Source: a virus
Lineage: Duplodnaviria > Caudoviricetes
IMG/VR virus record: IMGVR_UViG_3300046819_000361
Reading direction: 5' to 3' (one strand)
DNA length: 64,000 bases
Shown here: piece after piece, positions 8,516 to 31,168 of the stretch
Numbering within the stretch: position 1 is the first letter of the stretch
How the letters are laid out: every line of letters starts with the position of its first letter
Program-made: the position numbers and the translations under genes
The notes under the pieces: model-generated
What the model saw: only the letters and a program-made list of their open reading frames with translations
The model's database searches: none
Told to the model about the DNA's origin: nothing

Positions 8516-8789
8516 GATATTCCCAATTTAGTAAAAACCATGTTTTGTATTGTTCTTTTTCGAATGTCAATTTTAATTGGTCAAATGGTCCATCAGTAGT
8601 CCACTCAACAGCTGAAATGCCTTTAAATTCATCTTTAATAAAATCCCTGATAAACTTATACTGCCCCCCATTAAATTTGCAGTTGCAATATTTCTTCCAT
8701 AAGAGATCTGTATCTTTGCGTGATAACAAAACATAGGGTGGTCGAAACTTAATTAAACCATAATTGTAAATTCTTTTAAAAATATTCAT
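8508..8789 (-). CDS. Array micro-protein
   Basis: ends WFLLNWEYHD. Confidence 0.8.
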   Translation of the reverse strand: MNIFKRIYNYGLIKFRPPYVLLSRKDTDLLWKKYCNCKFNGGQYKFIRDFIKDEFKGISAVEWTTDGPFDQLKLTFEKEQYKTWFLLNWEYHD

Positions 8790-8992
8790 GACCACCTCAA
8801 CACAAACCAATTTCGGTCATCTTGATTTGAAAAATATATTAAATTCCCAGCATATCTATATCGATCAGCCTCGTATTGACTTCCAAATTGATCTACACAC
8901 CATTGCATAATCATGCTTCTATCAGATGATGGTTCTCTGATGATAACTCCGTATGGGTAATTGTCTGTGCCACGGCAGGTGATTACTCTCAT
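8786..8992 (-). CDS. Array micro-protein, D
   Basis: ends WFVLRWS. Confidence 0.8.
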   Translation of the reverse strand: MRVITCRGTDNYPYGVIIREPSSDRSMIMQWCVDQFGSQYEADRYRYAGNLIYFSNQDDRNWFVLRWS

Positions 8993-9180
8993 GACCACCT
9001 CAACACAAACCAAGTATATTCTTCATCATCCATGCACCAGGAATTAATGCCCTTATATATTGCTGTTTTGAAACCGGCAGCTGCTAATATCTCATCCCAT
9101 TGATTCAAATTATTTAGTTCTGGATTGGAGTAAGCATACTCAACAAACTTTGGAAAATTAGATATCTTAAACTGTTTCAT
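8989..9180 (-). CDS. Array micro-protein, A
   Basis: ends WFVLRWS. Confidence 0.8.
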   Translation of the reverse strand: MKQFKISNFPKFVEYAYSNPELNNLNQWDEILAAAGFKTAIYKGINSWCMDDEEYTWFVLRWS

Positions 9181-9446
9181 GACCATCTCAATATAAAAAG
9201 TGTTCTATGATGTTCTTCTTGAAAACTGAAATTATCTTCAGGCGGATCATAAGCTGTATCTAGCCAATAATTCCATTTTAATTTTTTCTTATCAAATTGA
9301 TGTTCACACCAGTCACACATGACCCTGACTATTTCATCATAATCAGTATCACTGTATTCTGGTGGTAATTCCCCTGCATGTTTTCTGAGATCCGCTAAAT
9401 CATCAATTATGACTTTGTAACGTAACCGTTCATCTTCTATTCTCAT
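9177..9446 (-). CDS. Array micro-protein, D
   Basis: ends LFILRWS. Confidence 0.8.
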   Translation of the reverse strand: MRIEDERLRYKVIIDDLADLRKHAGELPPEYSDTDYDEIVRVMCDWCEHQFDKKKLKWNYWLDTAYDPPEDNFSFQEEHHRTLFILRWS

Positions 9447-9655
9447 GACCACCTTAATATAAACCAAGTTCGCAGTGCTTCTGTTTCAAATTTGACAATC
9501 CCCCAATAATCTGGGTGATGTGGATTTCTAATATGCGTTGCGTTATCGTATTGACCACCACATTCTTTAATACATGATTCTATTGATATTTCATGTGCTT
9601 TTGAATAATTAACTATGTTAGCTATTTCAGATCTGCTTAATGAATGCTTAATCAT
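9443..9655 (-). CDS. Array micro-protein
   Basis: ends WFILRWS. Confidence 0.8.
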   Translation of the reverse strand: MIKHSLSRSEIANIVNYSKAHEISIESCIKECGGQYDNATHIRNPHHPDYWGIVKFETEALRTWFILRWS

Positions 9656-9903
9656 GACCAATTCAAAAGAAACCAAGTCATATATTTGTCATCTTCGAAC
9701 TCTAAATATTCGATATAATGTAACTTTTCATTACGGACTAACTTACAATGAAACTCTTTACTAAATTTCTCATCATATTTTTCAAGGTATTCTCCCCAAC
9801 TTATAATTCCAGAAGTCCTCTGCATCGATAACATGACAGTACTAGCATTGGAATCAAACCATTTTATAGCTTTGTATGCTCTAGGTGTTGGTAATTGAAT
9901 CAC
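9652..9903 (-). CDS. Array micro-protein
   Basis: GTGA overlap; ends WFLLNWS. Confidence 0.8.
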   Translation of the reverse strand: MIQLPTPRAYKAIKWFDSNASTVMLSMQRTSGIISWGEYLEKYDEKFSKEFHCKLVRNEKLHYIEYLEFEDDKYMTWFLLNWS

Positions 9904-10088
9904 GCTGACCACCTTAACGTATACCACATTGCATCTTCCTCTCGTCCAAAATAAAATTTTCGTTCAACATGATTATAGAACCATCTTCGGTTCATTTCTG
10001 GTTTTCCGAATTGTTCACAACACCAGTTGAAATCATCGAAATTATCTATAGTGGTGTGACAAACCCACCATCCATGAAAATATTTCAT
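9900..10088 (-). CDS. Array micro-protein, D
   Basis: ends WYTLRWSA. Confidence 0.8.
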   Translation of the reverse strand: MKYFHGWWVCHTTIDNFDDFNWCCEQFGKPEMNRRWFYNHVERKFYFGREEDAMWYTLRWSA

Positions 10089-10090
10089 AA

Positions 10091-10294
10091 TTATCCACTA
10101 TACTTTAATGCAAACCAAGTAAATTCCACTTCATCCATTTCCCAATATGACTCTGTATCAGGTATTTTACTAATGAAATTGCAACTTTTAAATCCTAACT
10201 TCCTGATAAACTCATCAATTGCCATCCATTCATATTCTGGATATACTGATAACGCTTTGTCATATAGGTCCATTTCATAAATCTTGACTTTCAT
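10091..10294 (-). CDS. Array micro-protein, A
   Basis: ends WFALKYSG. Confidence 0.8.
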   Translation of the reverse strand: MKVKIYEMDLYDKALSVYPEYEWMAIDEFIRKLGFKSCNFISKIPDTESYWEMDEVEFTWFALKYSG

Positions 10295-10533
10295 AAAAAC
10301 CTCATTAAGAACCAATTATAGCATGCTACGTTTTCAAATATTATTTTGTCAAATCGGTTGTATTTATGTGCTGGATTTTCATGAAATTCATAAGCTTTGC
10401 ATTCCGAAAACAGCTTTGCCATATTCTTGTGATATTCATCAAGATTCAAATCACTATTAAGAGCACCACATTCTACAAGAAAGTTTTCTCGTGCCGGATC
10501 AGGAATATCATCCCACAATATAGTAACAGTCAT
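10291..10533 (-). CDS. Array micro-protein, C
   Basis: ends WFLMRFL. Confidence 0.8.
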   Translation of the reverse strand: MTVTILWDDIPDPARENFLVECGALNSDLNLDEYHKNMAKLFSECKAYEFHENPAHKYNRFDKIIFENVACYNWFLMRFL

Positions 10534-10772
10534 GAAAACCTCATTACAAACCAAGTGTAATAAGCTTCATTTTCAAATACGACTCTATCAAATTCTATCT
10601 CTCTGAGTGATTCATCATCATATAATTCATAGGCTTTAAATTGGGCAAATGCATCTTCCATATTATCAAGATATTCGTCAGCAGATATAGAATCATCCAT
10701 AGACCCACACTCTCTTGTAAAATTTTCACATACTTGGTCAGATATATCGGACCATTTAACAATAAAACTCAT
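10530..10772 (-). CDS. Array micro-protein, C
   Basis: ends WFVMRFS. Confidence 0.8.
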   Translation of the reverse strand: MSFIVKWSDISDQVCENFTRECGSMDDSISADEYLDNMEDAFAQFKAYELYDDESLREIEFDRVVFENEAYYTWFVMRFS

Positions 10773-11176
10773 GAACTCCACCTCATTACAAACCAATTAC
10801 GATCAGCTTCTGTTTTAAAAACAAAATGACTATTGCCACAATACCATCTGGTATTATCTATAAACTTCCAACCATGAGAATATGGACCAAATGTTTCTGT
10901 CAACCACGCTATCATTTCTTTCATCTCTGATGGTAAGAAATATCCAACCATATATTTAAAATCATGCTGATTGCTTTCTACAGTTTCACATATCATACCG
11001 GTTTCCCATACATCGTCTGATTCTTCTAAATTTAATGGATTACCTGGATGTGTACAATAACTACAAGGTGGGTGCCAATGACAAGAGCAACTTCGATTCC
11101 TATATAATGAATCAAAATCCTCTTGTAATGATAACCCAACTGCATTTAATCTTCTAGATAATTGGTTTATGACCAT
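10769..11176 (-). CDS. Array protein, D, with Cys/His-rich N-terminal extension
   Basis: CSCHWHPPCSYC; ends WFVMRWSS. Confidence 0.75.
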   Translation of the reverse strand: MVINQLSRRLNAVGLSLQEDFDSLYRNRSCSCHWHPPCSYCTHPGNPLNLEESDDVWETGMICETVESNQHDFKYMVGYFLPSEMKEMIAWLTETFGPYSHGWKFIDNTRWYCGNSHFVFKTEADRNWFVMRWSS

Positions 11177-11430
11177 TTTAATAAAAACCAAGTTTGAGTT
11201 TCTTCTTTATTGAACTCTAATGCTGTTAGTTCGTCTCTTCCAGTTTTTGGATTTTGCTCATAAATTTTAACAGCACCGTATTCAGATTGCAAAATATTTG
11301 AAGTGTATATCATAAAATTAACAGTTAAATCACCATGTGTTTTCACAAAGATTTTTTCATGATGGTCGATAAAGTTTTGCCACCATAATGGGGTTTCATA
11401 AAAATTTTCACCTGGAATTTCTAATCTCAT
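11167..11430 (-). CDS. Array micro-protein, E
   Basis: ends WFLLKWS. Confidence 0.8.
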   Translation of the reverse strand: MRLEIPGENFYETPLWWQNFIDHHEKIFVKTHGDLTVNFMIYTSNILQSEYGAVKIYEQNPKTGRDELTALEFNKEETQTWFLLKWS

Positions 11431-11645
11431 TGGCTCCACCTTAATAAAAACCAAGTATAACACGCTTCATTGTTAAAGTAAATAGTACGGTATATCCTGC
11501 CTGAACCGCCATACTTATTGAATTCTGCTTCAACATTCTCAACATATTTTACCGCAGTAACACTTAAGTCAACACTGCCACACTCATAACACAATTTTTC
11601 TATGACATTATCGGGTATGTCACACCACTTTACTATGAAGACCAT
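11427..11645 (-). CDS. Array micro-protein, C
   Basis: ends WFLLRWSQ. Confidence 0.8.
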   Translation of the reverse strand: MVFIVKWCDIPDNVIEKLCYECGSVDLSVTAVKYVENVEAEFNKYGGSGRIYRTIYFNNEACYTWFLLRWSQ

Positions 11646-11911
11646 TTTAACACAAACCAATCACGATGTTCAATTTTTGCAAATCTAAACCGATAGTTAT
11701 GGTCAACTGGATTAACCAGTTTACGTTGAATCAACAACAATTTATTTGCAACATCTAAATTGTCTGTCAATAACTCCATGTTCCATGATCGATCACCAGC
11801 ATGCCCAAATGATTTAGTACACCATCTAGTGCATTCTATAAATTCTTCATCAGTGCATAAAACATTAATGAAGTGATATAATGGATTTGATTTTGCTTTT
11901 GTTAAGACCAT
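11633..11911 (-). CDS. Array micro-protein, D
   Basis: ends WFVLKWSS. Confidence 0.8.
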   Translation of the reverse strand: MVLTKAKSNPLYHFINVLCTDEEFIECTRWCTKSFGHAGDRSWNMELLTDNLDVANKLLLIQRKLVNPVDHNYRFRFAKIEHRDWFVLKWSS

Positions 11912-12132
11912 TTTAATATAAACCAGGTAAAATCTTCTTCTCGTTCAAAAATTGCATACTTTACCTTAAAATGCGTGATTGACTTATACTCACCAACAAC
12001 TCTGAATTTACAAAGTTTTTCTAGAAAGTCAATTTGTAAATTAACATCGGAGTATTCCTCGATTAATACCTTATGTTCGGCAAGAACGTTGTGTAGTTGA
12101 ACACCAATTTCTTTACTTGTTACAAGTTTCAT
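11902..12132 (-). CDS. Array micro-protein
   Basis: ends WFILKWS. Confidence 0.8.
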   Translation of the reverse strand: MKLVTSKEIGVQLHNVLAEHKVLIEEYSDVNLQIDFLEKLCKFRVVGEYKSITHFKVKYAIFEREEDFTWFILKWS

Positions 12133-12353
12133 GACCACCTCAATTTGAACCAATTATATAGTTCAGGTTTTAAATAATATGCCGTTTTGTGATATGGTGG
12201 ATTCATACCATGCCATAATTCTTTGGGTTGTTGTCTAATCCAATTGTGTAATTCGTCGGACTCCAGTAATAATGGGTTTGATGATAATTCAAAACAATAT
12301 ACAAAACCATTATTGATGAATAGCTCATATGCACCATTTCTAGGTAAACTCAT
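12129..12353 (-). CDS. Array micro-protein
   Basis: ends WFKLRWS. Confidence 0.8.
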   Translation of the reverse strand: MSLPRNGAYELFINNGFVYCFELSSNPLLLESDELHNWIRQQPKELWHGMNPPYHKTAYYLKPELYNWFKLRWS

Positions 12354-12550
12354 GACCACCTTATTATAAACCAATTCTTATGAGCGTCGGTTTCAAATGT
12401 AATTATGGTTTCACACGACTCAGATGTAAACCGACATGAGACTATCCCAGTTTCCAGCAATGCAGAACTCATCCAGCGATTGGTCCCATAAAATGCTGAT
12501 ATATTATCTTCCATTTTTGAAAACAATGGTATTTTTAATATATTATTCAA
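12350..12550 (-). CDS. Array micro-protein, B
   Basis: ends WFIIRWS. Confidence 0.8.
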   Translation of the reverse strand: MNNILKIPLFSKMEDNISAFYGTNRWMSSALLETGIVSCRFTSESCETIITFETDAHKNWFIIRWS

Positions 12551-12799
12551 TTATGACCACCTCATTATAAACCAAGTAGCTTTTGCATCATCATGGAATT
12601 CAACTCCCAGTATACCGTCATACTCATCATCTATAAGAATAGCACCAACCTTTGCAAATTCAACTTTAATTAACTGTTCACGTTCTTCATCTTCGTAGTA
12701 GTGAAATGCATCTGGAAATCTATCATCGATATCGTTTATGAAATTCTGCCACCATGAGGGTTGTGTTAAAAACCCGCCGTCTACCAAATGTAATATCAT
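12551..12799 (-). CDS. Array micro-protein, E
   Basis: ends WFIMRWS. Confidence 0.8.
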   Translation of the reverse strand: MILHLVDGGFLTQPSWWQNFINDIDDRFPDAFHYYEDEEREQLIKVEFAKVGAILIDDEYDGILGVEFHDDAKATWFIMRWS

Positions 12800-13017
12800 A
12801 TGTTTAATAGAAACCAAGTTATACGATGTGCTTCACCGGAAACAGTGCCATGGTCTCGACTATTCGTGTAATCTTCTTCATAATCTAATTTATACTCCTG
12901 CATAATCGATTCCTTCCAATAACATATCCGATCACTTCTAACGAGCGACCTGCCAGCTTTTGCGTCAAACTTGCTATCAAGATCTTTCCAATTATCGTGT
13001 GTTAATTTGTATTTCAT
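12796..13017 (-). CDS. Array micro-protein
   Basis: ends WFLLNI. Confidence 0.8.
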   Translation of the reverse strand: MKYKLTHDNWKDLDSKFDAKAGRSLVRSDRICYWKESIMQEYKLDYEEDYTNSRDHGTVSGEAHRITWFLLNI

Positions 13018-13226
13018 ACATTTAATAAAAACCAAGTTAGAAGATGTTCATGTTCAAATGTGATGGTTCCAAAACCTTTTAGTTGATCATAATTTCCATG
13101 ATAGGTATCTTTGATATATTGTTTCATTTCTCGTGATGAACGCATATTCACAATACTAGAATCGGACTCATCACGATAGAATGCTAATTTGTTCCATTGT
13201 TTATGTGTTATATTAATTGATATCAT
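13014..13226 (-). CDS. Array micro-protein
   Basis: ends WFLLNV. Confidence 0.8.
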   Translation of the reverse strand: MISINITHKQWNKLAFYRDESDSSIVNMRSSREMKQYIKDTYHGNYDQLKGFGTITFEHEHLLTWFLLNV

Positions 13227-13465
13227 GTCCATCTCAATAAAAACCAATTACGATCATCAATAGATTTGAAATATACCCTTATGTAGTTTTCACCAACATA
13301 CATTACCCCTGCCCATTTATCCCCATCGGGACCAAACTGTTCTAGGCACCAATTATCAATTTCTATTTTGGTAAAGGTTATCTCATAAGTATCGCCAAAC
13401 ACTTCTAAACATACACCATATGGGTGATCGAGATCAGCCCTACTATCAAATGTCTTAAATTTCAT
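13223..13465 (-). CDS. Array micro-protein, D
   Basis: ends WFLLRWT. Confidence 0.8.
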   Translation of the reverse strand: MKFKTFDSRADLDHPYGVCLEVFGDTYEITFTKIEIDNWCLEQFGPDGDKWAGVMYVGENYIRVYFKSIDDRNWFLLRWT

Positions 13466-13689
13466 GCCCATTGTAATTTGAACTACGTTGCATGTTCTTC
13501 TTTTTCAAAAAAGAAATATATTATATATCTATTACCGGTCCACGTATATCTAGTCATCCAACGATACTTTAACGTAATTGGGCATCGACGGCTACCAAAC
13601 GTTTTGTGACACCATTCTTTTGCCAATAGTACCTTACAGTTTTCATCAGGCCATTCTGGATCAAATGGGATGGTTACTTTATACATTAC
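13462..13689 (-). pseudogene. Array cassette D with TGG>TAG at the conserved Trp
   Basis: ...EEHAT*FKLQWA*. Confidence 0.7.
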
Positions 13690-13910
13690 GAATACCTCAA
13701 TACAAACCAATTATAATGGGCTGCACTTTCAAATTCGTATACCAGCTTGTCATGGCAATTCTTAAACCGTTTACCCTTGAACTTCGCTAATTCTTTATTA
13801 ATTGTTTCGTTAATGTGATTTACACCACTCTGGTGATAATTATCACAATCTATAAGGAAATTCGTTTTAACAATTTGTGGTATGTTTTCAAAATAAATTT
13901 CAAAAGTCAT
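13686..13910 (-). CDS. Array micro-protein, C
   Basis: ends WFVLRYS. Confidence 0.8.
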   Translation of the reverse strand: MTFEIYFENIPQIVKTNFLIDCDNYHQSGVNHINETINKELAKFKGKRFKNCHDKLVYEFESAAHYNWFVLRYS

Positions 13911-14134
13911 GACCACCTCACTACAAACCAATTATAATGGGCTTCACTTTCAAATTCGTATACCAGTTCACCTAGACCATTACTAACCCGGTTACCTTTA
14001 CACTTCGCTAATTCATGATTTCGTCTTGTGTCGAAATCATACTTGGATACAAAATCATCATATTTACCACATGCTGTTAGAAAATTCTCTCTAGTTATGT
14101 CTGGTATGTTTTTAAACTTAACTTCAAAAGTCAT
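13907..14134 (-). CDS. Array micro-protein, C
   Basis: ends WFVVRWS. Confidence 0.8.
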   Translation of the reverse strand: MTFEVKFKNIPDITRENFLTACGKYDDFVSKYDFDTRRNHELAKCKGNRVSNGLGELVYEFESEAHYNWFVVRWS

Positions 14135-14337
14135 GACCACCTCAATACAAACCAATTATAATGGGCTTCTGATTCAAACGCAAGTTCATTTGTTATGTTA
14201 TTATAGGTTGCTTTGAATTTTTCTAGTTCTTGACGAACGTTAACCCAATATCTTGTGCCGTTTTCATTCTTGTTACAATGGTCGTTAAACCGTCTATAGT
14301 TAATGGGTAAATTGTGCTCACTTATTACAAACGTCAT
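14131..14337 (-). CDS. Array micro-protein, C
   Basis: ends WFVLRWS. Confidence 0.8.
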   Translation of the reverse strand: MTFVISEHNLPINYRRFNDHCNKNENGTRYWVNVRQELEKFKATYNNITNELAFESEAHYNWFVLRWS

Positions 14338-14591
14338 GACCACCTCAATAAAAACCACTGGTAGACATCTTCACGTAAATCGAACCCACTGAACAGGTCT
14401 ACCATTCTTCTATTGGCAGAGTAACGCCAACTACCCATAGGTAGTTCAACTATCCAATCGTCCACTTCATGTTTCATAGTAATTACAGTATACCATATAC
14501 CATCTACGTCGGTAATCTTTCTGGTGGTTTTGTAGGGTACCCCAAATGGATTATAGGGTGCGTAATAAAACAACCCATCAGTTTCTGTCAT
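14334..14591 (-). CDS. Array micro-protein
   Basis: ends WFLLRWS. Confidence 0.8.
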   Translation of the reverse strand: MTETDGLFYYAPYNPFGVPYKTTRKITDVDGIWYTVITMKHEVDDWIVELPMGSWRYSANRRMVDLFSGFDLREDVYQWFLLRWS

Positions 14592-14829
14592 AGCCCCACC
14601 TCATTATAAACCAATTACGATCTGATTCTTTTTCAAAATAAAACGTATTATTAAATCTAGTAGGGTCCCAGAAAAATCGAGCTGGCCTTGTAAAAAACCA
14701 CCATGACTTAACGCAACTATTATGGTCAACACACCAATTGTATTGTTCTAACAAGTCATTAGACATGGGTAGGGATGCAATATAATAACGTGCTTTAAGA
14801 CCCTCTAATCTACCTTCCGCAGGGATCAT
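14578..14829 (-). CDS. Array micro-protein, D
   Basis: ends WFIMRWGYDRN. Confidence 0.8.
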   Translation of the reverse strand: MIPAEGRLEGLKARYYIASLPMSNDLLEQYNWCVDHNSCVKSWWFFTRPARFFWDPTRFNNTFYFEKESDRNWFIMRWGYDRN

Positions 14830-15044
14830 TAACTATACCTCATTAAGAACCAATTATAATGGGCAAGACTTTCAAATTCAAGAACATAATCAAACGTAGT
14901 CCTGTATATAATACCATGGCATTCTTCAATTACATCTCGCCAACTTGCCGTATCATACCCTAATTTGTTTCTTATTGAGTTTGGTACATTAGACGCAGTG
15001 ATACGATAGGGTTTAAGTATTAACTTATCTTCGTTGTTTGACAT
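14829..15044 (-). CDS. Array micro-protein, C
   Basis: ends WFLMRYS. Confidence 0.8.
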   Translation of the reverse strand: MSNNEDKLILKPYRITASNVPNSIRNKLGYDTASWRDVIEECHGIIYRTTFDYVLEFESLAHYNWFLMRYS

Positions 15045-15265
15045 TCGAACCTCAAGCAAAACCAGTTATAATCTTGATCATTTAAAAATGATAATCTAAT
15101 TCGGGCTGGGTGTCTTTTGATACCACTACCGGTATAAATGTACATGGTCCATCGATAGTTGTCTGATGGGGTGTACGAGTATCCACCTGGACCAAATTGT
15201 TTTCCACACCATGCACCAACATCGAATGGGCTATTGTTTTTAAGAGTTACATCACAAACGATCAT
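15020..15265 (-). CDS. Array micro-protein, D
   Basis: WFCLRF + short extension. Confidence 0.8.
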   Translation of the reverse strand: MIVCDVTLKNNSPFDVGAWCGKQFGPGGYSYTPSDNYRWTMYIYTGSGIKRHPARIRLSFLNDQDYNWFCLRFECQTTKIS

Positions 15266-15504
15266 CCCCACCTCATCATAAACCAATTACGGTCAACTTC
15301 TTTTTCAAAATACCAGGTTGAATAATAATAACTGTAAACATATCGTGCATCACGTTCAAAAAACCAAAAGAATTTGACCTTACTTTTATGATTATCGCAC
15401 CATTCCTCTTTGGCATCAATAAATGAATTCCAGCCAATATCTTCTTTGATTTGTGCGGTGTAAAACTTTATTTTAACCTCGGTCGTGAAAAATACTTTTT
15501 TCAT
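15262..15504 (-). CDS. Array micro-protein, D
   Basis: ends WFMMRWG. Confidence 0.8.
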   Translation of the reverse strand: MKKVFFTTEVKIKFYTAQIKEDIGWNSFIDAKEEWCDNHKSKVKFFWFFERDARYVYSYYYSTWYFEKEVDRNWFMMRWG

Positions 15505-15707
15505 CCCCACCTCATCATAAACCAATTACGATCTTGTTCTGTCATAAACAGAATCCTAGAATTTTCGAACAACAATTCACTAGCAGCAATAATCCATTTA
15601 TCTTCCTCAAAGGTCTCTTTACACCAATCAAGGTAGTCCTCTATATACTGCTCATCATTTTCCTCTATTTCTACAACATAAATGTCGATATCAGTGTATG
15701 ATTTCAT
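15501..15707 (-). CDS. Array micro-protein, D
   Basis: ends WFMMRWG. Confidence 0.8.
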   Translation of the reverse strand: MKSYTDIDIYVVEIEENDEQYIEDYLDWCKETFEEDKWIIAASELLFENSRILFMTEQDRNWFMMRWG

Positions 15708-18454: not shown

Positions 18455-18455
18455 T

Positions 18456-19916: not shown

Positions 19917-20110
19917 GACCACCTCAAGACAAACCAAGTATATTCTTCTTCACTTAATTGCCATGATTTATTATCTTTTGAAAAAATTACATACATTGCC
20001 GATTTAAAACCCATTCGTCGCATACATTCATCACCCTTTAACCGAGAATAAGGCTCAGATTGCCATGCAGCAATGAATTTTTTAAATTTATAGATGTCAA
20101 TGTTTTTCAT
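19913..20110 (-). CDS. Array micro-protein, A
   Basis: ends WFVLRWS. Confidence 0.8.
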   Translation of the reverse strand: MKNIDIYKFKKFIAAWQSEPYSRLKGDECMRRMGFKSAMYVIFSKDNKSWQLSEEEYTWFVLRWS

Positions 20111-20304
20111 GAATACCTTATTAAAAACCATGTATATTCTTCATCACTCAAGCCCCAACCAACCTCAATATTAACAAACCTTGCTGATTTGAATCCAACC
20201 TGTCTCATATAATCAGCAGCAGCGTGGTGATAACTAGAAAAATCTGGGTATAAAATCCACTCATCTAAAAATCGAGGAAAATCGTTAATATTAAATGTTT
20301 TCAT
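20107..20304 (-). CDS. Array micro-protein, A
   Basis: ends WFLIRYS. Confidence 0.8.
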   Translation of the reverse strand: MKTFNINDFPRFLDEWILYPDFSSYHHAAADYMRQVGFKSARFVNIEVGWGLSDEEYTWFLIRYS

Positions 20305-20513
20305 AACCATCTCAAAATAAATCAATTGATTATTTCATCTGGTACATTATCGCCGAACTCTATTTCCAGAGCAGGTCTATCATATAAATGTTCATGTCTT
20401 ACCCGGTAATCTTCCACTTTATGTGCAATAAGCCAATTCGTAACTGCTGGGGTAAGTTTAAATAGTAAACCCTCTAAATAAAAATTCTCAAACCCTATCT
20501 TAACCTGTTTCAT
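20301..20513 (-). pseudogene. Array cassette with TGG>TGA at the conserved Trp
   Basis: ...PDEIIN*FILRWL*. Confidence 0.7.
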
Positions 20514-20716
20514 GACCACCTCAATAAATAAAACGTTTTTAATTCTGGGGTTCTAAATTTAATCGCACCAAATTCGTAATTCCGAATTCGTGGATAATAA
20601 TCCCCAATATTTTCTGCGCGGATGAAATCACTATTGAAAATGTAACCTTGTCTACGAGCGTCACGTGCCATTTCCCGATACATCGTGCGTGTTAACTCAG
20701 TCCACGTCGTATCCAT
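20510..20716 (-). CDS. Array micro-protein
   Basis: GGAGGTGGT-ATG start; ends FYLLRWS. Confidence 0.75.
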   Translation of the reverse strand: MDTTWTELTRTMYREMARDARRQGYIFNSDFIRAENIGDYYPRIRNYEFGAIKFRTPELKTFYLLRWS

Positions 20717-20909
20717 ACCACCTCCATGCAAAAAACTCGGCACAATGGATTGTGCTAAACTTAACGATATCATCACCCCATGACCATTTATCATTATCTT
20801 GATAAGGGCCGAACACATGATTGAACCACTCCCACATGTCTTGCCTAAATGCACGTCTAATACAGGAAGTATTAATCGAATACGGATACTGTTCTTTTTC
20901 TATGACCAT
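20697..20909 (-). CDS. Array micro-protein, D
   Basis: ends FFAWRWYGYDVD. Confidence 0.75.
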   Translation of the reverse strand: MVIEKEQYPYSINTSCIRRAFRQDMWEWFNHVFGPYQDNDKWSWGDDIVKFSTIHCAEFFAWRWYGYDVD

Positions 20910-21118
20910 TTTAATATAAACCAGGTTAAATATTTTTCGTTTTCAAATGTTAGGGTAATTGACTTATAATTTTCATCTGCTTTTGCATTGACAATGTGCG
21001 GATCTAATGAGCCAACAAACATTTCATAATTTATCCGGTCAGAGTAGTGGTCATCCTCCCACATAGCCATTAATTTTACATCAAGTGGGCTACCATCATA
21101 TAAAATAAAATCAATCAA
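20900..21118 (-). CDS. Array micro-protein, B
   Basis: TTGA overlap; ends WFILKWS; paralog of 17424. Confidence 0.8.
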   Translation of the reverse strand: MIDFILYDGSPLDVKLMAMWEDDHYSDRINYEMFVGSLDPHIVNAKADENYKSITLTFENEKYLTWFILKWS

Positions 21119-21195
21119 GACCACCTCACTAAAACCCAATTATAACAGGATTCATTGTCGAATTCAATAGAACACTCATTAATTTTCATTGACAT
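21115..21195 (-). CDS. 26-aa minimal cassette (C-terminal motif only)
   Basis: MSMKINECSIEFDNESCYNWVLVRWS. Confidence 0.6.
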   Translation of the reverse strand: MSMKINECSIEFDNESCYNWVLVRWS

Positions 21196-21196
21196 C

Positions 21197-21424
21197 TTAA
21201 CTCCATCTCAATAAGAACCAATTACTATGTTCCCTATAATCAAACCGAATATAATGGGTATCCCTACCAGGCGTGTATCCAGTATAATAATAAAAACGAT
21301 CAGTATTAGGGCCACTACAATGGTCAAATAACCACTCCCATACTTCATCTGACAAGCTATTTTCATAGATGCAATTATCATATAAAGTACCAGTCAGCTT
21401 AATAGTATGGGGATCAAAAATCAT
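21197..21424 (-). CDS. Array micro-protein, D
   Basis: ends WFLLRWS. Confidence 0.8.
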   Translation of the reverse strand: MIFDPHTIKLTGTLYDNCIYENSLSDEVWEWLFDHCSGPNTDRFYYYTGYTPGRDTHYIRFDYREHSNWFLLRWS

Positions 21425-21642
21425 GAATACCTCAATATAAACCAATTCTTATGTGCTTCATTTTCAAATGTGATCAAGGTATGATTATCACCAGCTCTAA
21501 AAACAAGCCTTGCTGATTTAACGTGAGGTAATGATTCTATATACATTGTCCAAGTATCGAACCCATATGATTCTGATGATTCCCATTCCGCTTCGATATT
21601 ACTATCCATAGTAGATGGTGAGGGTACTTTTAATTCACTCAT
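21421..21642 (-). CDS. Array micro-protein, B
   Basis: ends WFILRYS. Confidence 0.8.
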   Translation of the reverse strand: MSELKVPSPSTMDSNIEAEWESSESYGFDTWTMYIESLPHVKSARLVFRAGDNHTLITFENEAHKNWFILRYS

Positions 21643-21842
21643 GACCACCTCAAAATAAACCAAGTTGTGTGTGCGTCATCCTTGAACCAAACATTTGTAT
21701 ATGGGGTATCGTAACGAACCCTGATAATATTCTTGTCAAGTGACTTAATAAATATTTCCCATGATGAAACTCCAGCATTTCTCCATGCATCGTATAACTT
21801 CCACTCTATTGTAGAATTATTCTTTATCGTTAATTGACTCAT
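21639..21842 (-). CDS. Array micro-protein, B
   Basis: ends WFILRWS. Confidence 0.8.
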   Translation of the reverse strand: MSQLTIKNNSTIEWKLYDAWRNAGVSSWEIFIKSLDKNIIRVRYDTPYTNVWFKDDAHTTWFILRWS

Positions 21843-22072
21843 GACCACCTCATTATAAACCAGGTTTTATCTTCTTCCCTAGCAAAATCAATACACGTAT
21901 AATAGGGGTCTTCGAAGTATTCAATTTCACATTCAATACCATCTAATAAAAAATTCAACCATTCTACCCACTCTGTAATATCGCCATGATGAAAAGGTAT
22001 ATCAATACCCCATTGTGCTTCCAGATTGTTATCCATTTTACTACACGTGGGTATCTTTAACTTATAACTCAT
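21839..22072 (-). CDS. Array micro-protein, B
   Basis: ends WFIMRWS. Confidence 0.8.
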   Translation of the reverse strand: MSYKLKIPTCSKMDNNLEAQWGIDIPFHHGDITEWVEWLNFLLDGIECEIEYFEDPYYTCIDFAREEDKTWFIMRWS

Positions 22073-22302
22073 GACCACCTCAATACAAACCAATTCTTAT
22101 GTGCTTCACTTTCAAATGTGATCAAAGTATATGATGGATTATCATCACCATTCCATTCACGCTCATGCCAGGTTGCATCAATGACCGTGGGTAATGATTT
22201 CAAATAATCCAACCAATCATCAATCTGATAAAATTCACTAGCCCACCCAGATTCAAGATTAACATCTATCGTTGAACTAGATATTATAATTAACTCACTC
22301 AT
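22069..22302 (-). CDS. Array micro-protein, B
   Basis: ends WFVLRWS. Confidence 0.8.
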   Translation of the reverse strand: MSELIIISSSTIDVNLESGWASEFYQIDDWLDYLKSLPTVIDATWHEREWNGDDNPSYTLITFESEAHKNWFVLRWS

Positions 22303-22514
22303 GAATATTTTAATAAAAACCAAGTCTTATGTGCTTCATTATCAAATTCAATCTGCATAACTTCAACACCACCCAATTTAACACGGTCAACACTAACTAT
22401 ATTGTCATCAAGCGATTTGATAAAACTATACCACCCAACAATACTAGATGCCAAATATAAATCAGACAGTTTCTTATATAATGGTAAATTATTACCCATA
22501 TACAATACACTCAT
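22299..22514 (-). CDS. Array micro-protein, B
   Basis: ends WFLLKYS. Confidence 0.8.
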   Translation of the reverse strand: MSVLYMGNNLPLYKKLSDLYLASSIVGWYSFIKSLDDNIVSVDRVKLGGVEVMQIEFDNEAHKTWFLLKYS

Positions 22515-22717
22515 GAATACCTCAATATAAACCAAGTCTTATGTGCTTCACTTGTAAATGTGATTCGTGTAATACTACCCGATAAACCACTGACATCAAT
22601 AATGTTCTCATCAAGCGATTTAACAAACTTATACCAGGTATAAGTTTGACTACTAAAAAATAGCCGAGTCAGTTTATGATCTAACGCAGTACCCTCTTTT
22701 AAATATAACTCACTCAT
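22511..22717 (-). CDS. Array micro-protein, B
   Basis: ends WFILRYS. Confidence 0.8.
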   Translation of the reverse strand: MSELYLKEGTALDHKLTRLFFSSQTYTWYKFVKSLDENIIDVSGLSGSITRITFTSEAHKTWFILRYS

Positions 22718-22971
22718 GAATACCTCAATAAAAACCAAGTCTTACCTTCAGCACTATCAAATATAATTTCTTTGACCTCATTATCAAGCCTATCTAAACT
22801 CCCATGATATTTCTGTAATTCCTGATTAATTAGATACCAGGTATCATCACGATCTGGCCAATCTGAATACCTGGACATCAGTTCTCTCACCATGGTCTTC
22901 CATTCATTCGTACAACTGTCCCAAGCAGTTGCACCAATAATGCTTGGTTTATAAATGCTTAATCTAATCAT
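22714..22971 (-). CDS. Array micro-protein, E-like
   Basis: ends WFLLRYS. Confidence 0.8.
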   Translation of the reverse strand: MIRLSIYKPSIIGATAWDSCTNEWKTMVRELMSRYSDWPDRDDTWYLINQELQKYHGSLDRLDNEVKEIIFDSAEGKTWFLLRYS

Positions 22972-23153
22972 GACCACCTCAATACAAACCAAGTATATTC
23001 TTCTTCGCTCAACCCCCATGCATTCACAGTACCATTGGCTTTGAATGTTGCAGTTTTATAACCCATTCTTCTCATTTTTTCATTGAGTGTGCCTGAGTAG
23101 CTTTCACTTTCTTTCCTAAATTTGGGAAAATTTGTAATATCAAACCATTTCAT
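22968..23153 (-). CDS. Array micro-protein, A
   Basis: ends WFVLRWS; close paralog of 26118. Confidence 0.8.
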   Translation of the reverse strand: MKWFDITNFPKFRKESESYSGTLNEKMRRMGYKTATFKANGTVNAWGLSEEEYTWFVLRWS

Positions 23154-23353
23154 GACCATCTCAATATAAACCAATTCTTACGTGCATCATCATCAAACCA
23201 AATATCAGTGTATGGATTAGCATACCGAACACTAATAATATTCTTGTCAAGTGACTTAATAAAGGCTACCCATGTTATAGCTGGACTATTCCGCCATTCA
23301 TCATATAACTTTCTCTCCAAAGCAGATTTATTCTTTATCGTTAATTGACTCAT
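23150..23353 (-). CDS. Array micro-protein, B
   Basis: ends WFILRWS; close paralog of 21639. Confidence 0.8.
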   Translation of the reverse strand: MSQLTIKNKSALERKLYDEWRNSPAITWVAFIKSLDKNIISVRYANPYTDIWFDDDARKNWFILRWS

Positions 23354-23544
23354 GACCACCTCAATAAAAACCAAGTCTTGTGTGCTTCAGTTGCAAACTC
23401 AACGTAGGTAATAAATCTGTTATATGTAACACTGGATATCCCAACTTCATGCCTTGCTATATCCAGCCACTCTATTGTACCATAATATTTGGCTATATTG
23501 TCTTCTAAAGTTGATATCACTGGTATCTCCAATATACAACTCAT
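23350..23544 (-). CDS. Array micro-protein, B
   Basis: ends WFLLRWS. Confidence 0.8.
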   Translation of the reverse strand: MSCILEIPVISTLEDNIAKYYGTIEWLDIARHEVGISSVTYNRFITYVEFATEAHKTWFLLRWS

Positions 23545-23768
23545 GACCACCTCAATAAGAACCAAGTCTTATGTTCTTCTGTCTTGAATTTAACTATAGT
23601 ACCATTGACCCCATTAACTGCTCCAGAACGAACATCAATTATACCCTTACTAATCGATAATAAATAATTAGACCATTGAATATCATCAGCACAATCAGGT
23701 ATATACCATTGCTCTTCTAACTTATAGTCCATAACAGAACCATAGGGTATATGTAACATACAACTCAT
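23541..23768 (-). CDS. Array micro-protein, B
   Basis: ends WFLLRWS. Confidence 0.8.
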   Translation of the reverse strand: MSCMLHIPYGSVMDYKLEEQWYIPDCADDIQWSNYLLSISKGIIDVRSGAVNGVNGTIVKFKTEEHKTWFLLRWS

Positions 23769-23956
23769 GACCACCTCAATACAAACCATGTATATTCTTC
23801 GTCCGATATCAATACTCTATCGGCACTTGCGAAAGTCTGGTCTTCAATTACACTTTTAAAGCCATTAGCTCTAAAAGTAGCTTGCCAAGACGGGAGGCCA
23901 TCCCTCCAAAACATTTCTTTAAATTTTGGAAAATCACTTACATATACCTTTTTCAT
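23765..23956 (-). CDS. Array micro-protein, A
   Basis: ends WFVLRWS. Confidence 0.8.
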   Translation of the reverse strand: MKKVYVSDFPKFKEMFWRDGLPSWQATFRANGFKSVIEDQTFASADRVLISDEEYTWFVLRWS

Positions 23957-24174
23957 GACCACCTCAATACAAACCAGGTCTTATGCGCTTCACTTTCAAA
24001 TGTAATAAGCGTATAGGATGATGCCATCTCCCCACCGTTAACCCATTTCGCATCTTTAACACAGGGCAACAATTTCACCTTCCGTATCCAACCTTCAATA
24101 CTTCCATACCCATTAAAGTAGCATTCAAGATTGTAATCTATAGAACTACTTTGTTGTACTTTTAGTTGTATCAT
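23953..24174 (-). CDS. Array micro-protein, B
   Basis: ends WFVLRWS. Confidence 0.8.
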   Translation of the reverse strand: MIQLKVQQSSSIDYNLECYFNGYGSIEGWIRKVKLLPCVKDAKWVNGGEMASSYTLITFESEAHKTWFVLRWS

Positions 24175-24386
24175 GACCACCTCAAAATAAACCAATTATA
24201 ATAGGCTTCTGACTCAAATGTCAAGGTATATTGATGTATATCATACGTGACATGGTATCGATTTAATTCTGATTCGCGTACCACCAATTGTTTTTCAAAG
24301 CTCATTCCAAGCCATCCCTGCTCGTATAACGACATGGTAAAATTAACCCACCATTCATCCATCAGTGAAGGTTTGATGGTTATCAT
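24171..24386 (-). CDS. Array micro-protein, E
   Basis: ends WFILRWS. Confidence 0.8.
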   Translation of the reverse strand: MITIKPSLMDEWWVNFTMSLYEQGWLGMSFEKQLVVRESELNRYHVTYDIHQYTLTFESEAYYNWFILRWS

Positions 24387-24577
24387 GACCACCTCAATAA
24401 GAACCAAGTATAATCTTCATCTGATAAATCTAACACCGTGCCAAAAAAAGGATGGACAGCATTAACTTTTACACTTTTATATCCATTAGCCCTAATACTA
24501 TCTTCCCATGTATCGTATCCATCATTGTGAAACTCGGTTGTGTATTTTGGAAAATCATTTATCTTAATTGTTTTCAT
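24383..24577 (-). CDS. Array micro-protein, A
   Basis: ends WFLLRWS; paralog of 17033/19316. Confidence 0.8.
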   Translation of the reverse strand: MKTIKINDFPKYTTEFHNDGYDTWEDSIRANGYKSVKVNAVHPFFGTVLDLSDEDYTWFLLRWS

Positions 24578-24777
24578 GACCACCTCAATACAAACCAATT
24601 ACGATCTTCTTCATTACTAAACGCCAATCGATAAAATGGCCAGTTTTCCCAGGTTAACATGAATGTACCCTTACAATTCTTTTTCAACCATTCAGAAGTT
24701 TCATAGGTTAACATAACTCTACCACTCGCTTGAATTGTCCAAGTGGTTGTATGCAATATATCTACATAATATATCAT
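24574..24777 (-). CDS. Array micro-protein, D
   Basis: ends WFVLRWS. Confidence 0.8.
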   Translation of the reverse strand: MIYYVDILHTTTWTIQASGRVMLTYETSEWLKKNCKGTFMLTWENWPFYRLAFSNEEDRNWFVLRWS

Positions 24778-24980
24778 GAGTATTTTATTAAGAAAAAAGT
24801 TTTAGATTCGTCTGATTTAAATACAATAGTAGTACAACCGGGTTCACTACCTGATTGAATATATTCGGCATCAATAATTCCATAATACCCAATAATAAGG
24901 TCTTCCCAAACTACGTTGTTGAATTCTTCACGTAATTTATGATCCATGCTTGAATTTATTTTTACTTTTAGTTGTATCAT
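24774..24980 (-). CDS. Array micro-protein, B
   Basis: ends FFLIKYS. Confidence 0.8.
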   Translation of the reverse strand: MIQLKVKINSSMDHKLREEFNNVVWEDLIIGYYGIIDAEYIQSGSEPGCTTIVFKSDESKTFFLIKYS

Positions 24981-25246
24981 GAATACCTCAATATAAACCA
25001 AGTATAATCCGATTTCTTTCTAAATGCAAATTGAGCACTGCCAAAACCCTTACTCCATACATTACGATCAACATTTTTGATGTTTTTATGAATCCAGTCT
25101 ACTACCTCGGCATAACCTTCCAAATCTGCAACAAATCCAAGTAAGTTGAGTTGTTTAACCGTATATACCCCAGCCCATCCTTCTGGAAGATCCATGTAAT
25201 AACCATCTGATGTAATAGGCCAATTGCCTGTAAATATATTCTTCAT
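24977..25246 (-). CDS. Array micro-protein, D-like
   Basis: ends WFILRYS. Confidence 0.8.
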   Translation of the reverse strand: MKNIFTGNWPITSDGYYMDLPEGWAGVYTVKQLNLLGFVADLEGYAEVVDWIHKNIKNVDRNVWSKGFGSAQFAFRKKSDYTWFILRYS

Positions 25247-25470
25247 GAATACCTCAATATAAACCAAGTCTTATGTTCTTCACTATCAAATGTGATCAAG
25301 GTATGATTATCACCCTCCCCATAAACAAACTTTGCATCTTTAACATGCGGTAATGATTCTATATGCCCAGTCCAAGAAATGTCGTACCCATAAAATTTCT
25401 CTGATAACTCCCATTCCGCATAGATATTACGATCCATAGATGAGAAAGTGACTACCTTTAATTGACTCAT
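25243..25470 (-). CDS. Array micro-protein, B
   Basis: ends WFILRYS. Confidence 0.8.
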   Translation of the reverse strand: MSQLKVVTFSSMDRNIYAEWELSEKFYGYDISWTGHIESLPHVKDAKFVYGEGDNHTLITFDSEEHKTWFILRYS

Positions 25471-25715
25471 GACCACCTCAATAAAAACCAAGTCTTATGT
25501 TCTTCATTACCAAATCCATAGGTAGAACCAGTATACTCCCATTTCTCAAACGCCCATACCCGGTCTTTTCTATTGAGTACTAGCCTTCTACCGGACGATA
25601 GTGTTAAATAATCATGCCCAAACTGTGATCTTAACCATGCTGACGCTTCTACACTATCACTTTTTATAGTAGCTTTAAACGGGTATTTCTTTTTCCATCC
25701 TAATTTTTGACTCAT
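25467..25715 (-). CDS. Array micro-protein, D
   Basis: ends WFLLRWS. Confidence 0.8.
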   Translation of the reverse strand: MSQKLGWKKKYPFKATIKSDSVEASAWLRSQFGHDYLTLSSGRRLVLNRKDRVWAFEKWEYTGSTYGFGNEEHKTWFLLRWS

Positions 25716-25915
25716 GCATACCTCAATATAAACCAAGTCTTATGTGCTTCACTCTCAAATGTAATATCAGTGTAGAAGGCATCAACAAACACATCAACTA
25801 TATTATCATCAAGTGTTTTAATAAACTCAGGCCAATTATAATAACTAGATGCCATATATAACTTAACAATGTTAAGACCCACTCGTGATTCCCTATATAA
25901 CGTAAGTACATTCAT
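25712..25915 (-). CDS. Array micro-protein, B
   Basis: ends WFILRYA. Confidence 0.8.
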   Translation of the reverse strand: MNVLTLYRESRVGLNIVKLYMASSYYNWPEFIKTLDDNIVDVFVDAFYTDITFESEAHKTWFILRYA

Positions 25916-26121
25916 GACCACCTCAATACAAACCAAGTAAAATCCACATCATCCATACACCAACCTTGCCCAGGTTCAGCCATAATCGCAGATCTATATC
26001 CTTCACGTATCATTATCTCACTATATAAGGGTCTTTTACCAGTTATCTCCAGTTCATCTTCAGCAATACGTTTTGCATAATAGTAAAAATTTGGGTAGTC
26101 AGTTATATGAAACTGCTTCAT
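25912..26121 (-). CDS. Array micro-protein, A
   Basis: ends WFVLRWS. Confidence 0.8.
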   Translation of the reverse strand: MKQFHITDYPNFYYYAKRIAEDELEITGKRPLYSEIMIREGYRSAIMAEPGQGWCMDDVDFTWFVLRWS

Positions 26122-26300
26122 GAAAACCTCAACACAAACCAGGTATATTCTTCTTCACTTAAACCCCATGCATTAGGACCTTGAAGTCTGAATTTTGCAG
26201 ATTTAAAACCCATTCTTCTCATCGTATCATCGAGCGTACCTGAATAGTTTAGTGCTTCTTTTCTAAAATTGGGAAAATTTGTGACATTAAACCATTTCAT
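26118..26300 (-). CDS. Array micro-protein, A
   Basis: ends WFVLRFS. Confidence 0.8.
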   Translation of the reverse strand: MKWFNVTNFPNFRKEALNYSGTLDDTMRRMGFKSAKFRLQGPNAWGLSEEEYTWFVLRFS

Positions 26301-26479
26301 GACCACCTCAATACAAACCAAGTATACTCAATATCATCCATCTCATATATTAAATCATTCAAATCATGCACCCTGACAGATGGAAACCCATTATTACGTA
26401 AACTTTCACACCATGTATCATACCCATCACCAGCAGCAAACCTACGAAATTTCGGAAACCCCATTAAATTAAAAATCAT
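26297..26479 (-). CDS. Array micro-protein, A
   Basis: ends WFVLRWS. Confidence 0.8.
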   Translation of the reverse strand: MIFNLMGFPKFRRFAAGDGYDTWCESLRNNGFPSVRVHDLNDLIYEMDDIEYTWFVLRWS

Positions 26480-26664
26480 AAAAACCTCAATATAAACCAA
26501 GTCCAATGCTCATCACTCATAGAATACGAATTTTCACGTCCAAACGGCCCATGCTGATCAACTGAACTATATCCAGCCCTTTTTAAACTATCATACCAAG
26601 TACCACTGTCACTTTCATATTCTTCAATAAACTTCGGAAACTCCAGTAAATTAAAATACTTCAT
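26476..26664 (-). CDS. Array micro-protein, A
   Basis: ends WFILRFL. Confidence 0.8.
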   Translation of the reverse strand: MKYFNLLEFPKFIEEYESDSGTWYDSLKRAGYSSVDQHGPFGRENSYSMSDEHWTWFILRFL

Positions 26665-26885
26665 GACCACCTCAATACAAATAACGTATAATACGCTTCA
26701 TTTTCAAATTCGATAACATCATGGTTAGAAATAGTCGCATGAAATTTTAATAACTCATCACGCTCAACTTGCTGACATAACAAGTCACCTATCGATGGAT
26801 CAATACCAGCAGTCCAACCACAATGCTCCTCAAGATTGCTTTTTATTGATGTAGGTAAATCATCATACAATATACAAAATGTCAT
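26661..26885 (-). CDS. Array micro-protein, C
   Basis: ends LFVLRWS. Confidence 0.8.
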   Translation of the reverse strand: MTFCILYDDLPTSIKSNLEEHCGWTAGIDPSIGDLLCQQVERDELLKFHATISNHDVIEFENEAYYTLFVLRWS

Positions 26886-27103
26886 GTCCACCTCAACACA
26901 AACCAATTATAATAGGCTTCTGATTCAAAAATCAAAGTAGTAAACTCGAACGGCTCCCGATCTATAACGATTGCATTAAATTTTGCCAACTCATCTTTAA
27001 CATTAGCATAATATACTGGACCAGATGCTTCATTAATCAAACAATGAACGTTAAACTTGCTCCAATTAATCTTTACATCAACATCTCTTATTACAAAACT
27101 CAT
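26882..27103 (-). CDS. Array micro-protein, C
   Basis: ends WFVLRWT. Confidence 0.8.
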   Translation of the reverse strand: MSFVIRDVDVKINWSKFNVHCLINEASGPVYYANVKDELAKFNAIVIDREPFEFTTLIFESEAYYNWFVLRWT

Positions 27104-27282
27104 GACCACCTCAATATAAACCAGGTATATTCTTCTGCACTCAAACTATGTCTAGGATAACTACTACAATCATATTCATAAGTCTTAAACCCATGCACTT
27201 TAAACGATTCAACCCAATCCAACTCCTGTGTCTCATTCATGAATTTATGGAACGTAGATGCACTAAATTTTACTCGCTTCAT
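27100..27282 (-). CDS. Array micro-protein, A (first, leader-proximal cassette)
   Basis: GAGGTGATC-ATG start; ends WFILRWS. Confidence 0.8.
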   Translation of the reverse strand: MKRVKFSASTFHKFMNETQELDWVESFKVHGFKTYEYDCSSYPRHSLSAEEYTWFILRWS

Positions 27283-31160: not shown

Positions 31161-31168
31161 ATTGCAGA

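Follow-up and report, generated by a model that had tools for sequence, protein, structure and literature searches.

The shared 3' end of a tandem micro-gene family in a freshwater jumbo phage is a coding and translation junction that probably doubles as a crossover stretch

Organization of the array

The window analyzed here is a stretch of 64,000 nucleotides of viral DNA (Duplodnaviria; Caudoviricetes; IMG/VR record IMGVR_UViG_3300046819_000361) and is part of a ~367-kb contig of an uncultured freshwater jumbo phage. A walk along the minus-strand open reading frames (ORFs) between positions 7637 and 27282 gave a tandem array of ~87-90 paralogous micro-genes of 47-135 amino acids (AA), which are arranged head to tail and are designated g01, g02 and so on. 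Their junctions are marked by a 27-nt repeat with the consensus ACTTGGTTTGTATTGAGGTGGTCATGA, which comprises the end of one gene and the ribosome-binding signal of the next and which is the subject of this work. The C-terminal motif W-F-x-[LIMV]-[RK]-[WYF] is encoded in 86 ORFs of the array, while three to four ORFs are motif-less fillers. When the rest of the window was examined, no additional copy of the repeat was found outside the array. The features needed for the description of the repeat are:

7637..27282, minus strand: micro-gene array; nearly all tails read ...F-E-x-E-A-x-x-[T/N]-W-F-x-L-R-W-S
8786..8812, minus strand: 27-mer match with the lowest coordinate, junction g85/g86
18078..18104, minus strand: exact 27-mer; T W F V L R W S, the final eight codons of g44, followed by TGA
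27100..27126, minus strand: 27-mer match with the highest coordinate, junction g01/g02
27280..27305, minus strand: leader of g01 with the relic junction TTTTGGTATATTGAGGTGATCATGA, taken from the gene list and the leader sequence

Three motif-less ORFs, all on the minus strand, are g31 (20697-20909), g33 (20322-20513) and g65 (13483-13686). The protein of g65 ends with ...FFEKEEHAT right before the expected start of the motif, which resembles a truncation by a premature stop codon.

The replicative helicase of the phage is nearest to those of the jumbo phages PA5oct and Atu_ph07 (~50% identity), and the public sequencing runs containing the stretch are lake or freshwater metagenomes from 16 studies. 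Searches of the INPHARED phage collection with the array (megablast and tblastn) gave no match, and IMG/VR scans using two genes flanking the array returned distant relatives only, or none. The array is located in the early, divergently transcribed region of the phage. Contigs from RNA libraries cover parts of it at low depth, which is insufficient to show transcription. At the same syntenic position, related phages have fewer genes with the motif, ~30 (contig L018) and ~35 (contig L020), compared to ~88 in the window. In a more distant relative (L001/L002, a 162-kb contig) the family is split into two sub-arrays at 9071-12702 and 226-2962; many tails read T-L-F-V-L-R-W-S there, with Leu for the first Trp, and the nucleotide string ttgaggtggtc is retained.

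The junction as gene end and translation signal

With up to three mismatches allowed, the 27-mer had 41 matches, of which six were exact, whereas shuffled sequences gave none. All 41 lie on the minus strand between the two outermost matches listed above, and each is the 3' end of a small ORF. In the exact copy at 18078..18104, the Shine-Dalgarno sequence (SD) GAGGTGG and the ATGA overlap supply the start of g45. Codon usage was determined in 71 canonical tails, numbered backwards from the stop codon. The Leu codon at -4 is TTG in 49 of 58 cases (background 18%), the Arg codon at -3 is AGG in 56 of 61 (background 15%) and the final Ser codon is TCA in 56 of 60 (background 30%); the binomial p-values range from 1e-25 to 1e-40, with paralogues being treated as independent although they are related. 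TTG and AGG together with the Trp codon TGG and with TCA spell GAGGTGGTC, which we take to be complementary to the 3' tail of the bacterial 16S rRNA with one G-U pair, and TCA plus TGA leads to the ATGA overlap. Hence, TTG AGG TGG TCA and the following TGA provide the next gene, at the RNA level, with the SD GAGGUGG(UC) and with its AUGA stop/start overlap.

Among 89 junctions, the stop/start overlap is ATGA in 67, of the TAATG type in five, GTGA in one and of another kind in 16. At 42 junctions, the ATG is preceded by GAGGTGG at a distance of 5 nt, and 13 others have GAGGT, the SD lying inside the upstream coding region. The residue preceding the final Ser is aromatic throughout the 71 tails (W in 55, Y in 11 and F in five). 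The original prediction had assigned a triple duty to the repeat, namely peptide, SD and stop/start overlap, and had claimed mostly constant codons and a preserved aromatic residue; the counts given above agree with it in each of these respects. Distant relatives retain GAGGTGG with a variable overlap (ATGA, GTGA or TAATG, e.g. TCGTGA and TCGTAATG). In the leader of g01 the string GAGGTGATC is presumably fully complementary to the 16S rRNA 3' tail.

At 51 junctions, an in-frame TTG, ATG or GTG is located 21 nt upstream of the true ATG, and a reading from there gives (M)VCIEVVM or a similar peptide. The MVCIEVVM N-termini, which had been traced to the repeat before, are accordingly an artefact of ORF calling. 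For the annotation of such arrays, the start should be placed at the ATGA and not at the upstream TTG.

Four tails have no overlapping start, namely those of the genes that close the arrays of the window (g90), L018 and L020, and that of g29, which is followed by a gap of 126 nt. The peptide is kept in 4/4, the Ser codon TCA is changed to AGT or TCT in 4/4 and the Arg codon AGG is changed to AGA or AAA in 3/4. Tails having an overlapping start use TCA in 51/54 and AGG in 48/54 cases. Since array-terminal genes keep the peptide but lose the SD and overlap codons, the peptide constraint and the translation signals explain most of the nucleotide conservation.

Synonymous sites outside the translation signals

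According to an alternative that we consider unlikely, the junction has evolved for the exchange of cassettes, and selection for recombination itself shapes its nucleotide sequence beyond the needs of peptide and translation; the array would be integron-like without an integrase. Codon usage upstream of the SD bears on this idea. The codons for F, Y, H and A at positions -12 to -6 follow the background usage (p above 0.1 each), which argues against such selection. The Thr codon at -8 is ACA in 3 of 42 cases (background 35%), while Thr codons before TGG in gene bodies use ACA in 5 of 17 cases. Because ACA followed by TGG creates an in-frame ATG 24 nt upstream of the true start, this depletion is a translation constraint and likewise does not require an exchange site. 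In favor of it are three biases outside the SD and overlap codons. The Lys codon at -9 is AAG in 19 of 19 cases in the window (background 29%) and in all ~20 Lys tails read in L018 and L020, the Val codon at -5 is GTT in 0 of 24 cases (background 51%), and codon -5 mostly ends with A.

A context comparison rejected sequence context as the cause of Lys AAG, which also counts for an exchange site, or of Thr ACT. A junction hairpin pairing CAU..GACC with GGUCAUG was considered as the cause of Lys AAG and was not supported by alifold or by the comparison with shuffled sequences. RNAalifold gave no consensus structure at the junctions, with folding energies of -6.83 kcal/mol compared to -6.84 kcal/mol in shuffled controls, and no hairpin sequestering the ribosome-binding site (RBS) was predicted there. 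Neither context nor a conserved RNA structure accounts for any of the three biases. The AAG Lys codon is part of ...E-A-H-K-[T/N]-W-F tails of subfamily A (e.g. 17887-17889), in which the adjacent synonymous sites (ACT/ACC and ATT/ATA) vary freely.

Two further observations speak against selection for recombination. Upstream of the last ~seven codons the tails are subfamily-specific and are not homogenized across the array, and between strains the last 27 nt (0.79% variability) are just ~two-fold less variable than the gene bodies (1.46%). Besides, selection for evolvability is hard to tell from a by-product. The earlier claim that the repeat is selected at both protein and nucleotide level holds for the peptide and the translation signals. 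Beyond these it is weakly supported, as the strongly biased codons are exactly those of SD and overlap; in the comparison with background usage proposed at that time, most sites were at background, leaving the biases of Lys AAG and codon -5.

Whole-gene differences between close relatives

Twelve contigs from other lake metagenomes, which are 92-100% identical to the array, were recovered by look-ups of exact proteins. Compared gene by gene, they are mosaics in which most of the genes have an identity of 99-100% and some of 87-93%, and others are missing or replaced. The variable loci of the window are:

26887..27104, minus strand: g02, whole-gene indel of 218 bp with the crossover inside the junction
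23765..24171, minus strand: g16 and g17, two-gene indel of 406 bp, crossover interval TTGAGGTGGTCATGA (15 nt)
21839..22072, minus strand: g26 cassette, variable among sister strains
17424..17866, minus strand: g46 and g47 cassettes, replaced by a g60-like cassette in sister strains, boundaries at +1/-28 of stops

Besides the window, L015 carries the gene g02, and L010, L011, L012 and L014 lack it. At the deletion joint of g16 and g17 (23764>24171), 15 letters fit either side, and the same joint recurs in contigs of an independent lake run from 2020. A deletion of g40 and g41 was found in L013. L017 carries an inserted copy of a g10-like gene between g19 and g20, and both of its joints fall in junctions. 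At the g26 locus, homology blocks stop 2-9 nt past a stop codon and resume 38 nt before one. Here, g26 is followed by an extra gene in L013, L014, L016 and L017; the body of the extra gene replaces g26 in L004, L005, L006, L010 and L011, as judged from block boundaries; and L003 has a gap of 215 bp without a called gene. Loss of either g26 or its neighbor is one of the precise whole-gene events. Where the g60-like cassette replaces g46 and g47, its tail is fused to the start of g48 (joint 17428>14596, with CATGA between), which was found in two runs. An independent lineage (L020 compared to L021) differs by a two-gene indel of 454 bp and a cassette replacement of the same geometry.

Tracts resembling paralogues are scattered in patches between strains, which suggests that gene conversion took place among g10, g28, g37, g06 and g21, and a g10-like conversion patch is present in L013. 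A gene of 214 AA, which is missing from the window, is carried on a ~680-bp insertion between the promoter region and g01 (27346-27386 in the window, 6530-7246 in L010). L015 combines this insertion with g02, g16 and g17. Joints with short sides (20-50 nt) that end at junctions were read as contigs breaking at the repeat and were discarded as rearrangements.

Position of the crossovers

The homology blocks shared by the window and the 12 contigs start 23-39 nt upstream of a stop codon and extend to 0-9 nt past one. To locate the crossovers, each hybrid junction was compared with its two parents. The resulting intervals are TTGAGGTGGTCATGA (15 nt), TATTGAGGTGGTCAT (15 nt), TGGTTT (6 nt), TCATGA (6 nt), CATGA (5 nt) and a 3-nt interval at ~-34. 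A zone from -47 to +9 around the stop codon, which makes up ~26% of the 215-nt period, contains 8/8 joints of precise whole-gene events (binomial estimate ~2e-5) and ~18/19 of all boundaries (binomial estimate ~4e-10). It had been predicted that crossovers within the repeat remove, add or reorder whole genes and keep the format of the array, and that breakpoints would be enriched in the repeat. The natural indels, the insertion and the replacements in two lineages confirm the former, and the positions of joints and boundaries the latter. The concentration of breakpoints in the junction would also be expected of an evolved exchange site.

One objection is that the repeat plays no part in rearrangement, the junction-bounded appearance being produced by selection against broken genes and by alignments ending at the limits of conservation. 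Purifying selection on reading frames is plausible, and the block edges of cassette replacements are uninformative by construction. However, the precise indels are flanked by sequence of 98-100% identity and their ambiguous interval lies exactly in the shared stretch, the independent lineage shows a like pattern and the ectopic gene copy in L017 has both joints in junctions. Gene-less stretches such as the 215-bp gap in L003 are tolerated in sister strains, and selection against broken cassettes is therefore not absolute. We regard this objection as very improbable.

Just as improbable is a sequence-specific nuclease or recombinase that cuts and rejoins at the palindrome TCATGA and would thereby excise and re-ligate cassettes in a site-specific manner. 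Exactly on the stop/start overlap, 56 junctions have TCATGA, two of the six mapped crossover intervals shrink to TCATGA or CATGA, and at the downstream joint in L017 the parental tails differ by two bases just upstream of it. Yet the hexamer follows automatically from Ser TCA, the stop TGA and the ATG start. The palindrome noted at the overlap in the original prediction is real as such, but elsewhere in the window TCATGA is neither enriched nor avoided and occurs at chance frequency (15 observed, 15.0 expected). Other events lie upstream of it (L020 at TGGTTT, L017 at ~-34) and some rely on long body homology. Moreover, the junctions have no conserved hairpin, and no recombinase or integrase was found among the larger window ORFs scanned.

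Encoded proteins

Clustering of the gene bodies without the tail by BLAST gave subfamilies of 17, 14, 11, five and four members and many singletons; the best AA identities within the array are 25-75%. Pfam and PHROGs contained no credible family for six members tested, and no Pfam family was assigned to any of 87 aligned members. A family profile search of public data yielded 414 clusters at 50% identity; among the matches listed, 150/150 family clusters have sizes of 50-135 AA.

Two body subfamilies were modeled with AlphaFold (pLDDT 91.6 and 94.6). Both models have the common topology beta-alpha-alpha-beta-beta-alpha, and their last helix is the conserved tail (E-A-H-K-N-W-F-I-L-R-W-S or D-E-E-Y-T-W-F-V-L-R-W-S). 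According to these models, each micro-gene is predicted to encode a compact domain of this topology, the repeat being the end of the last helix. Foldseek against the PDB found nothing with an E-value up to 0.001, the VIA-align matches were confined to generic ferredoxin-like or RRM-like folds (Z up to 5.9), and a structure search of the Atlas returned viral hypothetical proteins only. Codon differences between strains are nonsynonymous in 96 and synonymous in 43 cases, i.e., relaxed or diversifying change. Because of this and because the array adjoins the divergent early region, the data suggest that the micro-genes are early host-directed proteins.

Transcription and ribosome-binding signals

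Two promoter candidates were read from the array strand:

27383..27410, minus strand: candidate array promoter in the divergent intergenic region, GTGTCA, 16-nt spacer and TG-n-TATAAT (extended -10), consensus match only
24195..24224, minus strand: perfect σ70 consensus inside the tail of g15 (TTGACA, 18-nt spacer, TATAAT)

In total, promoters with a perfect σ70 consensus (12 of 12) are present on the array coding strand at 24195-24224, 16986-17014 and 7612-7640. The -10 hexamer in the g15 tail is formed by Tyr-Asn codons of the motif, and TATAAT occurs at this position in ten junctions. By their sequence, some junctions may therefore double as internal promoters with a short leader consisting of just the SD. 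Over the array, neither promoter-like sites (123, compared to 108.6 in shuffled sequences) nor terminator-like sites (four, compared to 7.2) are enriched.

The plus-strand early genes at 27466-34000 have the RBS motif GGAGCA 5-7 nt before the ATG. Compared to GAGGTGG in the array, this means that the array has its own RBS type and that the early region contains two RBS classes. The loops (GCUCCGG) of a multi-loop small RNA at 39763-39955 match the GGAGCA sites of the plus-strand early genes and not GAGGTGG, and a link of this RNA to the array was dismissed.

Neighboring genes

In L018 and L020 the arrays are flanked by a divergent early region on one side and by a gene for 1,082-1,110 AA with a σ70 region 1.1 tail on the other. 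In the window, the minus strand directly downstream of the array has an ART-PolyVal ADP-ribosyltransferase-like gene (6317-7048) and a gene for a protein of 1007 AA with a σ70 region 1.1 domain at its end (1849-4872), the position of which is conserved in L018 and L020. An ORF of 62 AA on the plus strand (34115-34303) was judged by eye to be a candidate CsrA-like carbon-storage regulator; in the sister contig L012, a gene of equal length (62 AA, 756-944) has a precomputed match to CsrA of Pfam. On the minus strand at 61644-63956, a DEAD/ResIII helicase of 770 AA is interrupted at residues ~284-360 by a LAGLIDADG or Hom_end homing-endonuclease domain, which looks like an intein or an inserted endonuclease.

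Interpretation

We conclude that the 27-mer is probably the shared 3' end of one large tandem micro-gene family, a coding and translation junction which doubles as a crossover stretch. It is the only sequence common to otherwise diverged neighbors, and the crossovers of natural deletions, insertions, replacements and transpositions fall there. As they fall inside this stretch, each product keeps an intact gene and its own ribosome site. Besides its peptide, SD and overlap roles, the junction thus bounds the turnover of genes: one stretch of ~15-27 nt ends a protein, starts the next and serves as crossover point. The natural variants show that ~88 diverged small early genes can form an operon-like array and are still turned over singly.

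From the sequence, the following mechanism is proposed. The micro-genes would be translated by coupling, i.e., by termination and re-initiation along long polycistronic early mRNAs. The exchange would be driven by ordinary homology or microhomology through the replication and recombination machinery of the phage, with no dedicated site-specific system involved, and the array would constitute a fast-turnover library of host-interaction proteins.

Several observations weigh against a crossover function of the junction or limit it. L013 lost g29-g36 through the shared 3' part of g28 and g37, inside the gene bodies, and the paralogues g28, g37 and g10 recombine across longer body homology. A patch in g37 ends 48 nt into the gene and divergent patches end mid-gene (g21). 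In most sister strains, the 214-AA gene is inserted upstream of g01, outside any junction. The identical run through the ATGA between two junctions has a median of 7 nt and reaches at least 15 nt in 26% of the pairs; with such short homology, classical homologous recombination would be inefficient. Three of the crossover intervals shrink to 5-6 nt, two of them to (T)CATGA, which may reflect either a different mechanism or point changes that came later. As conservation fixes the block edges of cassette replacements, crossovers are located only by precise indels and insertions. Finally, SD and overlap do not account for some of the synonymous biases (Lys AAG, Val not GTT, A at the third position of codon -5).

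Most likely, the recombination property of the site is a by-product of the peptide and translation constraints, perhaps reinforced by selection for gene turnover. The self-formatting recombination site of the original prediction is retained here in so far as gene turnover is bounded by junctions; a site evolved for this purpose goes beyond the observations, as the junction is perhaps just the sole homology of diverged neighbors.

A more far-reaching possibility is put forward tentatively, and we doubt it more than we believe it. The phage population might keep up a pan-library numbering several hundred micro-gene cassettes (in public data, the family comprises at least 414 clusters at 50% identity), with the junction shaped into a universal docking site independent of an integrase. 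The recombination system of the phage itself would move, duplicate or drop any cassette; cassettes would be translated by coupling at once upon arrival and would together diversify an early arsenal for anti-defence or host takeover. In any case, the array draws attention to a large protein family that is unstudied so far and probably directed at the host, as an object of experiments.

Relation to known systems

Translational coupling by overlapping ATGA or TAATG with an SD in the upstream gene is found in the trp, gal and ribosomal-protein operons and in many phage operons. The array is alike in having ATGA at 67/89 junctions and a GAGG that lies within the upstream ORF, 5 nt ahead of the ATG. 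It differs in that this arrangement, known here from sequence, is repeated nearly 70 times and that the same nine codons also encode a conserved structural peptide. For lambdoid phages, Susskind and Botstein in 1978 and Clark et al. in 2001 reportedly proposed conserved boundary or linker sequences which guide the exchange of modules. In both cases, mosaic exchange uses crossover points in short sequences that are conserved at the borders of genes; the lambdoid sequences are sporadic and lie between unrelated genes, whereas the array sequence is regular across ~88 genes and has a coding and translational role.

Integrons are similar in their long one-directional arrays of small promoterless cassettes and in whole-unit variation between relatives. 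In contrast to these, the cassettes of the array are mutually homologous, and the junctions have no attC-type folded sites. An IntI tyrosine recombinase or integrase was not found among the nine larger window ORFs scanned against Pfam and PHROGs. In poxviruses, tandem families change by unequal crossing-over, which is described as 'genomic accordion' and as gene-array homogenization (PMC6115191, PMC9973261). Shared with these are head-to-tail paralogues, differences in copy number between close relatives, recombination between copies and breakpoints in shared sequence. The copies of the accordion are near-identical and transient, whereas the bodies of the array are old and have diverged strongly (25-75% AA identity) and just the junction is shared.

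The closest analogue, judged by comparison, appears to be shuffling mediated by the promoter-early stem-loop (PeSL) in T4-type phages. PeSLs are mobile regulatory cassettes in hyperplastic regions (PMC2839356, PMC4122927), i.e., conserved promoter-terminator cassettes on either side of small ORFs, through which insertions, deletions and mini-circles arise (PMC2839356). In both systems, short conserved repeats flank small non-essential early ORFs, the repeat delimits the indels and replacements that distinguish close relatives, and it carries an expression signal along, which renders the recombinants ready-formatted. PeSLs are ~100-bp intergenic units of σ70 promoter and terminator and format transcription. 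The array junction consists of coding sequence, SD and overlap, has ~15-27 nt without intergenic DNA and formats translation. A PeSL-type unit, i.e., an intergenic σ70 promoter with a stem-loop terminator, is absent at the array junctions, where genes overlap and no stem-loop is conserved. Moreover, the genes flanked in the array are all paralogues of one family. Repeat-guided modular shuffling is thereby extended from the transcription signals of PeSLs in intergenic DNA to translation signals within coding DNA and, if the docking-site reading were true, the array would be the translational counterpart of integrons and PeSLs.

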